NCBI GenBank assembly: GCA_003971905.1
Contig: RSEE01000070.1
Span: forward strand, 186,001 to 250,000
Reading direction: 5' to 3'
Length of the DNA stretch: 64,000 nucleotides
Source of the DNA: Moniliella sp. 'wahieum'
Taxonomy: Eukaryota
The notes under the pieces are model-generated. The model had not been told where the DNA came from and did not search any database. It was given only the letters and a program-made list of their open reading frames with translations. The position numbers and the translations under genes are program-made. Below, piece after piece: positions 21,901 through 25,888 of this stretch; position 1 is the first letter of the stretch, and the number at the start of each line of letters is the position of its first letter.

Positions 21901-22870
21901 AGTGAGAATCGGCATCTTCGTGCCCGTCTTTGAGGAGGAACGCGCCTACCCACGGCTCACCAGCCTGGATCACCTTGTCAATCGCCGCCATCGCCTTGGG
22001 GTCCGTCACCACCACCACCTTGCGGTGGTCCGGGAAGAGCGGCCGGCCGGCAATCGGAAGCGCGAGTACTTGGGGGTAGGTTTCAGGGGGCGGAGGAGGA
22101 CCAGAGGGAGGAGGTGGCGGCGCGTCCCCGTCCGAGTTGCCGTTGGTGCCCGAGGCGGAATCCGGTCCGGCCGCCGCCCCGTTCGCGGCCGCCGCGGACG
22201 AGTCTGGAGCCGTCTCGACGGCCTTGCTGGACGGGCGGCGACGGGAGGTAGGGGAGGGAGCGTTGGGTGCCTCGGGGGTAGATGCCGGTTTCTTCTTGCG
22301 CGTGCGGCGGGGCTTGTCGCTGGGCTCTGAGGGAGCGGCAGGCTCGTCGGGAGCGGTAGAGATGGGCTGGAAGGGCGAGGGGGGGTTGTGGCGCACAACG
22401 ACGATGCGGGTCTGGCCGTTAGGACCGCCAATGGTCACTGATTGCTGGCCCTCGTCCAGGTCAAAGTCGGCATCATCAATGTCCAAGTCAATTTCGATGG
22501 GGTGGTCGCGGTCGTTGGCATTGGCGTTGGCATCGGCAGCGGCAGCGGCATGGGTGCGGGCCGAGCGGCGGGGCCGGTGGCGGTCGAGCCGGACACCGTC
22601 CTGGTCGTCGTCCTGGTCGGCGGCGGGCGTGCTTGTCGGAGTGCTGGCCGTCGCGCGAGGCGGGTCGGCGCTTCCTGCGCGGAGGGGGGGGGCGGCGCGG
22701 AGGTGGCGAGCAGGCGGCGGGCGACGGCAACGGACGCGGGGCGTGGCGAGCGGAGGGCGCGGGGCAGCGAGCGGGGCAGCGAGCGGACAGCGGAGCACCG
22801 GCAGCCGCACCGCCGCAGCACCCATTGCGCCCACAGCCGAGCGCACTCCAGACGCTCGCGTGGGGAGCAT
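18998..22870 (-). CDS. PIM1: Mitochondrial Lon protease
   Basis: Arg/Ala-rich presequence, YPQVLALPIAGRPLFP, TRNYLEWLTSLPWG, DHFGLKDVKDRILEFLAV, Walker A GPPGVGKTS, ILLDEVDK, catalytic PKDGPSAG and VLPVGGLKEK. Confidence 0.97.
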
Positions 22871-23117
22871 CGCAGTCGAGATGGCGTTCGCTTGTAGCAG
22901 ATGGACCTACCGCTTCCAGCTGCTTAGCGGACTTTACATTCGTCATCGGCCATTGGCATCCTCTTCTCGCCGCCACTCTTCCGCTCCCCCGCTGAGGTAA
23001 GCCCAGCCATCACGTGCACGCCCTGCCTTCTGTATCTGTGCGCTGCAGCTCCACTCGATTCAGTTTTCTAGATTAAATCACCTTGAGTAGTGCAGTCCGT
23101 GCATCTCCCCCCCCCGC

Positions 23118-23379
23118 CTACCCCCACTCACCGGCGGCAACAGCGCCGCCGTCTGCCCCGTGTGCAGCACCGTCGACCCCATTCCCTCGGGCTCCACCAG
23201 CTCCTCATCCACCGCCCAGCGCGACGACGCGAACCTGGACGAACGCCGGATCGGAGCGGTGACGATGCTCCACTTCCCGCGCCAACGTCGCGACCGAGTG
23301 CGGCGGCGGCACACGCATCTTCTTCCCCCTTGCCCAACGCAGTACGCGCCGCAGCAAAGTACAGCACCGAAACCACCAC
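23118..23379 (-). CDS. MoaD/MOCS2A-type ubiquitin-like sulfur-carrier domain (no own ATG; apparently the C-terminus of the Sec14 protein)
   Basis: Stitched across indels: VVVSVLYFAAARTALGKGEE..MRVPPPHSVATLAREVEHRHRSDPAFVQV.ASSRWAVDEELVEPEGMGSTVLHTGQTAALLPPVSGG. DNA AGT GGGGG TAG gives SGG-stop if one G of the homopolymer is restored. Confidence 0.85.
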
Positions 23380-25888
23380 CGCCCCGTCCTCCTTCGTCCC
23401 ACTCGTCCCGCTCGTAGCCGTCGCTGCACCCGCAACGCCAGCGCCAACGCCAGGCCCTGCTTGCCAACCAACTTGGTCAGCGCATCGTGCGTCGCGCGCG
23501 CTTTCCGCTCCTCGGGTTCCTTGGCCCGCACCGCCGCGGCATGCGCGACCAAATCGTCCGACTCGCTCCGTCTGGGACGCGTCAGTTCGGTTCCGACCGA
23601 CCCGACCCTGACCCCGATCCCGATCGTGATTCTGACGCCGAGTCGGAACGCGAAGGGGCCATCGCGGGCGCGTGGGCAGTGTGCGGGCCGTGCTCTTCAG
23701 ACGAAGGCGTATCGTGCGAACCGGTCCGCCTGCGCAGCATCCGGCTCAGACGATGCCGGCCAGGGGAGAAGGAGCGACGCGAATGAGAATGGCCTAGCGA
23801 TGGCGAGGCCGGTGTAGCTGCAGCTGCAGCCGCAGCCGCTTCCTGCTCGTTAGGGACAAGGACTCACGCGAGCGAAGTGAGGCGCGCGATGCCGTTTCCC
23901 CACCAGCCGACGCACCGGACGAATTGGAATTGCGCGGCGCACGCGGATGGTGGTGAAGTAGATGCGAGCCATGGCGGACGATACCTTGCAAGCTGCCACG
24001 GAACGTGTCCCCCGAGCGGGACTTGGACGTGCGGGACGAAGCCGTGTCGCGCGTGTCTGTTAGAGTAGGGACAACAGGCTTGCTCACGGACGAGCCGGAC
24101 GACGCGCGGGTATCGCTGGATCCGGTGGACCGCTGGCTCCCCGACCGAGCTATCCTGCTTGGGCGGCGCAAGGCCGGTTGCCTTGGTCAGAGGGCGCGTC
24201 GGACAAGTTCTTGGAACGAGACGCGACCGGTGTCGCCCGGGTGTCCCCCGGGGTGGAAAAGTCCAGATGGTCCATCTCGTTGCCTGGGGAGGCCACCAGT
24301 GGTTGTGCATGGGGTGCAGCGGCTCTAGGTAGGTCCGAGCCGACACGTACCGCTCCAGATCGTTGTCCCCGTCGTCTTCCACAGACAAGATGGGAGGTTG
24401 AGCCGGGGCTGGTGGTTCCGCTGCGGCAGGGGCAGGAGCAGGCGTAGGGGCAGGTTCAGGCACAGATGCAGGAGGGATCGAGGAGGAAGGAGTGTCGTTC
24501 TTGGACGGGGTGTCGACCGCGACTGAATCCCGTGTGGAAGAGGAGATGGAAGATAAGCTGGGCCGGGCGAGGTCCGAGTGCGGGTTGGGGACGTGCCGTG
24601 GCACATCGGGAGGCGAGCTGGCGCCGATCCAGGCCAAGCATCCTCGCCCCCTCGAATGATGTACTCGGACGCACCCACTTTGCCCCCGCACACGGTTAAG
24701 AAACGGGCATCATTTCTTTTTGCGTTCGGTCAGGGTGTGCAGCAGGGCGGGCCAGTACGTGCTGTGGTGATAAACAGGGTCAAGGTCGCCCCCGCTGCGT
24801 AGAGAGAAACATGGGAATCAGCGGTTGGTCAGCATAGTTGCAGAGAAAAGAGGGGAGGGGGGGGGGGTGAAATGGGATGAGTGTAGAGGCAAGAAGAAAG
24901 AAAGAGCACGTACAAGTCCCCCAGCAATTGCGAAGCAACTACTTCGCCCATAATTGCCTCGTCAAACATGCACTTGGTGGTATTGGGGTCGATAAACGAC
25001 TGGATCGCGTTCCAAAAGAGTTTAAAGATCCATGGGACTGCCAGAGGGTAGTGAAAAGGAACAAGGAGGTTAGAGGGTTGGTACGTCGATCGATAGGCCA
25101 GCACCGAGGAAAGAGGGAGACAAGGACGCACCATTGATGCACATTGCAACGCCCAATCGTTCGACGTAGTGGTTCTGGAGAATGTAGAGCATGAGCTTGG
25201 CATTGGAAATTGAAGTGGGGTTGCGCGACTTGTTTTCAAAGTTGATCAGCGCCAACTGTTCCACCCCGGGCGGCATCAAGTCAATGCACGCATCCAAGAT
25301 CCACACCGCATACTTCATCTGTCGTTCGGTTTCGGGGGTATCGCTGCGGTGGGGGTGCATGTAGTGCAAGGGCCGACCATGTCGGTCGAAGCCAAGAACC
25401 GTCTCCTTGCCCGACTTGGCCTCCGGTTCGACATAGGCGGCCGAAATCGCATCGGCACCAAACTCGCGCCGCCAGGCAATCGTTTCAGTCAACCGTTTCT
25501 TGGCCTGCTCCACGTCCCACTTGGTCGCACGCAGGTAGCGCAGAATACTTTCGCGCGTCATCAGGCGCATCTTCTCCACGTCGGTCAGTGGCGCCAGGGG
25601 AAGCGGGGCCTTGCCTTTTCCGGGGAGCTGTTGGGGGTAGGCTTCGGTGCTGGTAAAGTAGGCGAGGCACGTGTCGTACTTGTCGCGCTGCTCGGGCGTG
25701 AGGGGCCGGTACGGGAAGGCGCGCGCATGGGGGTCGGGGTGGAGGAGGAGGGAGGAGGAGGAGGAGGACAGGAGGGAGCGGGCGGCAGGGTGGACGCCCC
25801 ACAGGTTGCCTTCGCTGCGGCTTGTGACGAGCTGCAGCTGGGCGGGGCCGGGTCGGGGCAGGCAAGAGGTCGGCGCTGCCGGTGGCAT
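23380..25888 (-). CDS. PDR16: PDR16/SFH3-type CRAL-TRIO (Sec14) lipid-transfer protein with a long Ser/Pro-rich C-terminal extension
   Basis: LMTRESILRYLRATKWDVEQAKKRLTETIAWRREFG, EPEAKSGKETVLGFDRHGRPL, MPPGVEQLAL, LQNHYVERLG, VPWIFKLFW...FIDP, YWPALL, CGGKVGASEYIIRGG. Introns near 25040-25130 and 24840-24913. Confidence 0.88.

Follow-up and report, generated by a model that had tools for sequence, protein, structure and literature searches.

The window, a stretch of 64,000 nucleotides from Moniliella sp. 'wahieum' (contig RSEE01000070.1, positions 186,001 to 250,000 of the forward strand), contains at 25888-23118 on its minus strand a gene whose first half resembles Sec14-type lipid-transfer proteins and whose end resembles MoaD, the small subunit of molybdopterin synthase. 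We consider it likely that this locus is a gene conserved across the Exobasidiomycetes, which encodes a PDR16/Sfh3-type Sec14 protein, a linker of about 400 residues and a MoaD domain ending in Gly-Gly, and that the frame breaks which interrupt it in the present sequence are sequence errors. A fusion of this kind had been proposed in an earlier sequence-only reading of the locus. That observation is confirmed in part; how broken the sequence is had been understated.

The features of the gene are collected in Table 1. Both introns carry standard fungal splice signals according to direct reading of the sequence, and the spliced translation of the Sec14 part (exons 1, 2 and 3) is free of stops. 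A profile built from 21 fused orthologs was used for matching the window; it spans both intron junctions without a gap (positions 84-285, 284-327 and 328-355) and is matched in the expected, collinear order throughout. Two orthologous records, P0195 and P0001, show read-through residues at the position of intron 1.

Table 1. Features of the Sec14-MoaD gene in the window, in the direction of transcription.
Feature	Position	Strand	Description
Exon 1	25132..25888	-	ATG 25888-25886; N-terminal region, CRAL_TRIO_N and first two thirds of CRAL_TRIO; last residues ...GVAMCIN, then a single base
Intron 1, 94 nt	25038..25131	-	GTGCGT...CAG with CTAAC branch-like site; direct sequence reading and ortholog profile
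Exon 2	24914..25037	-	VPWIFKLFWNAIQSFIDP...QLLGD(F); ortholog profile positions 284-327, E 3.3e-18
Intron 2, 119 nt	24795..24913	-	GTACGT...CAG with CTGAC branch-like site; ortholog profile goes on from 327 to 328
Exon 3, first segment	24713..24794	-	(F)GGDLDPVYHHSTYWPALLHTLTERKKK; ortholog profile positions 328-355, E 1.6e-8
Conserved post-domain segment ARFLTVCGGKVGASEYIIRGGE	24634..24708	-	Other frame; ortholog profile positions 358-382, E 4e-8
Linker, low-complexity, Ser/Pro/Ala-rich, about 400 codons	23428..24633	-	Changing frames; three-frame view, coding-potential scan and Viterbi path
Predicted MoaD/MOCS2A-type beta-grasp domain	23120..23427	-	Frame pieces at about 23427-23326, 23324-23232 and 23230-23120; ends PPVSGG
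TAG stop	23118..23120	-	Right after a five-G run; one base off the Gly-Gly frame

The first half of the gene codes for a PDR16-type Sec14 protein. Exon 1 matches the Pfam families CRAL_TRIO_N (E 6e-13) and CRAL_TRIO (E 7.9e-18), the remainder of the latter being located in exon 2, and this part of the sequence-only reading proved correct. The match of exon 1 to the ortholog profile (positions 84-285) has an E of 1.3e-117. Its best solved structures are those of yeast PDR16/Sfh3 (4fmm/4j7q/4j7p/4m8z, E about 1e-34), which match far better than Sec14 (E 4.5e-7); the assignment to the PDR16 type is based on this difference. The 0.96 kb of coding sequence for the Sec14 domain are without a frame break. 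Yeast Pdr16/Sfh3 has the same CRAL_TRIO_N and CRAL_TRIO architecture, but its chains comprise 333-360 residues without a long tail and without MoaD, whereas the orthologs of the Ustilaginomycotina add a tail of 200-500 residues and those of the Exobasidiomycetes carry MoaD in addition to this tail. Pdr16 is described as a protein that moves phosphatidylinositol and guards against azoles (PMC4331669), and Sfh3 is described on lipid droplets (PMC3937096).

The MoaD part of the window is distributed over three frame pieces, ...VVVSVLYFAAARTALGKG, KKMRVPPPHSVATLAREVEHRHRSDPAFVQV and ASSRWAVDEELVEPEGMGSTVLHTGQTAALLPPVSGG. The two strings from which MoaD had originally been recognised are both present, VSVLYFAAARTALGK in one frame and SRWAVDEELV...AALLPPVSGG in another. 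The N-terminal piece (23427-23320) matches the ortholog profile with E 7e-5, the C-terminal piece (23230-23120) with E 6.6e-9, and the latter reaches the last profile position. When the three pieces are joined with an X at each of the two breaks, they cover positions 3-96 of the 96-position ortholog MoaD profile with 65.4 bits; with both internal breaks filled in this way, the MoaD domain of the window is predicted to be complete. Of the two Pfam families that were to be expected from the sequence-only reading, CRAL_TRIO was matched, while ThiS (PF02597) reaches only 17.8 bits with the C-terminal piece alone, below its cut-off of 22.5; the same piece matches the NCBIfam family TIGR01682 moaD with E 2.6e-4. 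The VSGG end is encoded at 23131-23120 and its two glycine codons at 23125-23120. The Gly-Gly claimed earlier is encoded. The stop directly behind it is out of frame by one base as the sequence stands, and 13 further codons (RRGGEMHGLHYSR) follow up to a TGA at 23080-23078. A search of a large protein collection with the MoaD end of the window gave two candidates and no match, and is uninformative.

The fusion itself is established through relatives and not through the broken sequence of the window. When exon 1 was used for an exhaustive search, close relatives with 62-72% identity and 585-925 residues were obtained; MoaD forms the end of four of these. Two further searches enlarged this first set, and altogether 56 proteins of the orthogroup were fetched and examined. 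The architecture sought was present in 25 of them: Sec14, linker and MoaD, ending exactly in VSGG. In these 25 records MoaD comprises 88-124 residues, lies 202-498 residues past a conserved ...IRGG segment and forms the end of proteins of 431-925 residues. The linker of the window, about 400 codons, is inside the ortholog linker range of 202-498 residues.

Named species with the fusion are Tilletiaria anomala, Sympodiomycopsis kandeliae, Jaminaea rosea, Jaminaea pallidilutea, Parajaminaea phylloscopi, Tilletiopsis washingtonensis, Exobasidium rhododendri, Tilletia indica and Tilletia horrida (two proteins). The six fused species that were looked up represent five orders of the Exobasidiomycetes, and all named fused records belong to this class except for one that is mislabelled. 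This record, P0167, carries the name of the fern Adiantum nelumboides, and the tree places it in a fungal clade beside P0166. Because of this position P0167 is probably a fungal contamination of the plant assembly. For seven proteins with MoaD and VSGG ends (P0153, P0155, P0156, P0157, P0159, P0162 and P0163) the precomputed Pfam column lacks PF02597; searches by domain architecture would therefore undercount the fusion.

The other 31 of the 56 proteins include 25 orthologs of the Ustilaginomycetes type, which keep the tail, lack MoaD and end soon after an RKSESE-like motif. The remaining records are P0193 from the Tilletia group, which ends just before MoaD, the truncated P0001, P0005 and P0006, and P0004 and P0082, which have garbled tails.

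All homologs are predicted proteins, some of them from faulty records (the garbled tails of P0004 and P0082, the shortened P0193), and annotation software might have merged neighbouring genes in the relatives. Such an artefact is extremely unlikely. Independent sources (NCBI, JGI, Logan and ENA) supplied the records, the fused proteins span five orders, and every unfused row of the tree falls in one clade apart from the truncated P0193. In addition, P0195 contains an in-frame insert of 19 residues at the position of intron 1 of the window, which shows that unspliced DNA was read for this record, and it is still open to the Gly-Gly end. P0151, whose start lies behind the Sec14 domain, continues without a stop for 621 residues through tail and linker to the Gly-Gly end, and P0196, which starts within the Sec14 domain, is likewise stop-free to this end.

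The tree was calculated from the Sec14 part and the tail with the MoaD columns excluded; P0194, one of the 25 orthologs of the Ustilaginomycetes type, is without an N-terminus and was left out. One clade with support 99 contains 24 of the 25 unfused rows, among them Violaceomyces and Testicularia (Ustilaginomycetes), the exception being P0193. Two changes suffice to explain the distribution of the fused and unfused label. The Sec14 part of the window groups with the fused species Tilletiaria anomala (Shimodaira-Hasegawa-like approximate likelihood ratio test, SH-aLRT, 93) on a long branch. The base of the tree is poorly resolved, so that a gain in the Exobasidiomycetes and a loss in the Ustilaginomycetes would both fit.

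In position, the fusion point coincides with the end of the unfused Ustilaginomycetes orthologs. This fits a stop codon lost between adjacent genes or, in the opposite direction, a fission. The unfused orthologs share a C-terminus resembling ...HRKSESE-RP-ISAS, and in the fusions of the Microstromatales the MoaD core is found about 15-20 residues past a similar HRKS motif. The comparison suggests that the fusion point might correspond to the ancestral stop codon. In the window, RRSESDD at about 23570 was considered as a counterpart of RKSESE; this match by eye was dropped, as BLAST gave no support (E at least 0.4).

It could also be argued that the window contains two genes, with the Sec14 gene ending upstream and a separate MoaD gene starting by a spliced upstream exon or at a non-AUG codon. 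An acceptor-like site is present (CTGAC...CAG, 23481-23457), and no frame is continuous in the sequence as it stands. The frame with VLYFAA, open from 23745, is free of Met. Going upstream, the first two ATGs (about 23541 and 23475) are in one common frame, which stops at about 23470; both points had been noted earlier and were borne out by reading of the frames. In the coding-potential scan, however, the signal is strong and free of gaps from about 23640 to 23116 and falls beyond 23116, and the segment 23640-23424, just upstream of MoaD, has the highest signal of the whole tail. There is therefore no non-coding gap before MoaD, and the putative acceptor is located in coding sequence, within the best-scoring tail segment, so that the splice alternative raised with the original proposal is not needed. 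The absence of a separate MoaD start is seen in the relatives as well: the 25 orthologs are fused, and a Met at most 10 residues upstream of the MoaD core occurs in only two of them. A free-standing small MoaD with its own start was rejected on these grounds, and we regard two separate genes as very improbable.

The class of the C-terminal domain was assessed with the orthologs. In the four fused orthologs tested, CRAL_TRIO_N, CRAL_TRIO and ThiS are the sole Pfam families; ThiS scores above its gathering cut-off of 22.5 in three of them and with 22.0 bits in the fourth. Among the NCBIfam families, TIGR01682 moaD scores best in all seven orthologs analysed (E 1.3e-12 to 2.1e-8), with the full model covered in six; the scores of 35-48 bits are under the curated cut-off of 66 of this bacterial model. 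NCBIfam SAMP1 gives E 8e-4 to 0.08 on the orthologs, and both SAMP1 and ThiS are far weaker than moaD. The best sequence match of P0151 in the PDB is human MOCS2A (5mpo_A, E 0.0035), aligned to the terminal Gly-Gly.

For the structural comparison an AlphaFold model was built of the ortholog P0196, not of the window copy itself, with an alignment of 25 sequences. The ten-residue blocks of MoaD have a mean predicted local distance difference test score (pLDDT) of 86-96; for most of the linker the value is under 50, and this long linker is probably disordered. In a Foldseek search of the PDB, ranks 1-7 are MoaD chains (6jbz, 6jc0, 5mpo, 1nvi, 2q5w and 1fm0) with target template modelling scores (TM-scores) of 0.71-0.87; SAMP1 follows at ranks 11-13 and Urm1 at rank 17, and ThiS is also placed behind MoaD. 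The Atlas model of P0002 has a TM-score of 0.75 to a MoaD cluster. The nearest Atlas cluster consists of stand-alone MoaD proteins of 94 residues, mostly from basidiomycetes (score 0.88); it serves as a lead only, and is a point in favour of two separate genes. The profiles and the model together predict that the C-terminal domain is MoaD and not ThiS or Urm1. A Urm1- or SAMP-type identity was rejected on the Foldseek ranks and the NCBIfam SAMP1 scores, both of which are behind those of MoaD.

The sequence-only reading had assumed a continuous coding-like run in which one G needs to be restored; this does not hold. As given, no reading frame is continuous from 24712 to 23118. Stop codons and homology anchors in a three-frame view give at least nine single-base breaks in 1.7 kb. 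A Viterbi path based on codon usage, for which 8.2 kb of the window that are confidently coding served as training sequence, changes frame nine times at a high and 13 times at a medium switch penalty. The Sec14 frame stops at a TGA (24712-24710) after ...TERKKK, beside a run of five A. The next conserved segment resumes in a different frame only 5 nt beyond profile position 355, which therefore leaves no room for an intron and marks the first frame break; tblastn with P0009 likewise places residues 356-382 in one frame and residues 387-440 in another. Two breaks fall inside MoaD, one at about 23325 in a five-G run (23329-23325) and one at about 23230.

Breaks of the same kind are found in conserved genes elsewhere in the window. 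In the gene for Lon protease, open frames match residues 266-615 and 616-940 of the mitochondrial Lon structure 7sxo_A, and the switch at about 20215 is made without loss of a residue or base. In the N-domain of Lon about 19 residues are poor in the main frame; the other frame reads ILTSAEQVHQVGVFCRIVS opposite VITDKNDVYDVGVLAQITS of 7sxo_A when compared by eye, which indicates what appears to be a compensating pair of breaks. The 75-residue piece of Lon in the alternative frame gave no match in the PDB, the query being too short. Consecutive Pfam profile positions also run on from one frame to another, too closely spaced for an intron, in RHD3/Sey1 (about 60165), a purine-cytosine permease (about 38905), GOST (about 10570) and a lactonase (about 58060). 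As such breaks also interrupt conserved genes outside this locus, sequence error is the likeliest cause; the last exon most likely owes its frame breaks to single-base errors in the sequence and not to biology. Breaks in conserved genes were noted at about 21925 and 21868, 21720 and 32600 as well; the affected genes include Lon and TruD/Pus7. The window resembles an unpolished, error-prone assembly and needs polishing before genes are called.

Several observations weigh against an intact fusion gene in this genome. Besides the missing continuous frame and the fact that the homologs are all predictions, the breaks are distributed very unevenly, with a density in the last exon of about 5-8 per kb, around four times the value for Lon, and with none in the exons of the Sec14 domain. 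Lon overall contains about 5-7 breaks in 3.9 kb (about 1.3-1.8 per kb), with about 0.5 per kb in its C-terminal 2.1 kb and about 5 per kb in the middle of its N-terminal region. Neither homopolymer density nor GC content explains this spread. G/C runs of at least four bases occur at 14.4 per kb in the tail versus 18.5 per kb in the unbroken exon 1, and exon 1 with 62% GC has no break while the middle of the N-terminal Lon region, also with 62% GC, has 3-4; inspection of three breaks at the level of single bases, in Lon and Sey1, placed two of them at short runs. In addition, of the 21 columns with at least 90% conservation in the orthologs, the MoaD domain of the window keeps 14 and differs in seven, and it has TGQTA where the orthologs have GGEEV.

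These points would be expected if the frameshifts were real, the protein stopped at TERKKK and linker and MoaD were pseudogenised, for example once the molybdenum cofactor (Moco) was no longer used. The first break puts a stop directly behind the Sec14 domain, and a screen of the open frames of at least 110 codons in the window turned up neither MoaE nor MOCS3 nor any other Moco gene. Decay nevertheless seems unlikely to us, since the same kind of break interrupts conserved housekeeping genes of the window. In each segment the codon-usage signal remains strong within the frame of that segment, two segments at the MoaD end score like the Sec14 domain, and not a single stop is found inside any homology-supported segment. 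The mean identity between the window and the orthologs is 36% for MoaD (44-49% among the orthologs) and 64.5% for the Sec14 domain (68-74% among the orthologs). By this measure the MoaD domain of the window appears diverged in proportion to the Sec14 domain, not disproportionately.

For a gene that encodes the complete fusion, the likeliest function by analogy would be that of a sulfur carrier of molybdopterin synthase, either tethered or released from the linker. The small subunit of molybdopterin synthase is described as carrying sulfur as a thiocarboxylate on its double-glycine C-terminus, as being adenylated and sulfurated by MoeB/MOCS3 and as working with a large subunit (PMC9370521). In the fusion, MoaD is at the extreme C-terminus, so that the Gly-Gly carboxylate would be free without processing. 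It would then be adenylated and thiocarboxylated by a MOCS3/Uba4-type enzyme, and the tail of MoaD would be inserted into MoaE (MOCS2B), where it might donate the sulfur for the conversion of cyclic pyranopterin monophosphate to molybdopterin. The long linker would let MoaD reach MOCS3 and MoaE while tethered; cutting of the linker and release of MoaD would be equally possible. The fact that all 25 fused orthologs end exactly at Gly-Gly argues that activation of this C-terminus is under selection.

It is a tentative and rather doubtful reading that in the Exobasidiomycetes the full-length fusion is the working form, with the carrier permanently tethered to the PDR16-type protein and with sulfur relay and Moco synthesis at its membranes or lipid droplets. 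In a bolder version, built on analogy with Urm1, the lipid-transfer protein might use its Gly-Gly end for covalent attachment to targets.

In the orthologs the domain shares the beta-grasp fold, TIGR01682 as best family and the Gly-Gly C-terminus with MoaD/MOCS2A/CnxG/Cnx7; the window encodes PPVSGG. Known MoaD proteins are free-standing and have about 77-106 residues in the PDB matches, whereas the MoaD of the fusion ends a protein of about 630-925 residues and lacks its own start. MoaD within a larger polypeptide is found in MoaX of M. tuberculosis and in MoaD-MoaE of D. radiodurans; the activity of MoaX is described as dependent on cleavage (PMC4326299), and DRMoaD-MoaE is reported to be cut by a JAMM protease (PMC8832034). 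In these proteins MoaD comes first and its Gly-Gly is buried until cleavage, whereas in the Sec14 fusion MoaD comes last, its Gly-Gly is free and there is no MoaE domain. A fused synthase of the MoaX type (MoaD followed by MoaE) was rejected as an identity for the fusion, with no MoaE in the four fused orthologs tested and nothing after the Gly-Gly. Bacterial helix-turn-helix (HTH; IclR/MarR) proteins with a C-terminal MoaD/ThiS domain also have this domain behind an unrelated N-terminal one, but the N-terminal domain is a different one and there is no long disordered linker; an Atlas cluster of such HTH-MoaD/ThiS proteins of 326 residues matches P0002 in its MoaD part with a query TM-score of 0.73 and is a lead only. 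Human MOCS2 resembles the fusion in the unusual expression of the small subunit, which is described as sharing one mRNA with a second reading frame (PMC9370521). There, two overlapping frames give two cooperating proteins, whereas the fusion has one frame and a partner without a known link to Moco.

The linkers of the Ustilaginomycotina orthogroup contain a conserved short motif in which an acidic tract is followed by L[DE][RKQ]-F-[YK]-T-[PS]; the strict pattern is present in 37 of 51 proteins (for example P0003, P0163 and P0172). The counterpart in the window is DDGDNDLER-YVSA at about 24365-24320 on the minus strand, which resembles the conserved FxT[PS] motif. The likeness of the linker motif to a Phospho-FFAT motif was judged by comparison with what we take to be the core sequence of STARD3. 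Phospho-FFAT motifs, with an aromatic residue at position 2 and Ser/Thr at position 4, are described as binding VAP proteins of the endoplasmic reticulum (ER; PMC7705450). The motif is a lead that the lipid-transfer protein might dock at ER contact sites.

No description of a Sec14-MoaD fusion was found in open-access papers and preprints, subscription journals being outside the scope of this search. The fusion is visible in public protein records, and two JGI records are named "molybdopterin converting factor small subunit". It is a variant that joins two known kinds of protein in an architecture unreported in the literature searched. In bacteria, plants, animals and ascomycetes, MoaD/MOCS2A is regarded, to our knowledge, as a small protein that stands free. 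An entire basidiomycete class, including Tilletia, the genus of the wheat and rice bunt fungi, appears to make MoaD only as the tail of a lipid-transfer protein with 630-925 residues. Should the fusion work uncut, nature would provide a test of how much N-terminal cargo is tolerated by a ubiquitin-like sulfur carrier, and the question would arise whether Moco synthesis sits at membranes. If it is cut, a processing step new to knowledge exists.

The window as a whole is GC-rich fungal DNA with 54-69% GC in 2-kb steps. The next gene on the same strand encodes the mitochondrial Lon protease, and a gap of only about 247 nt (22870-23117) lies between its ATG and the TAG that ends the fusion gene. 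Directly behind this TAG there are nine G in a row (23115-23107).

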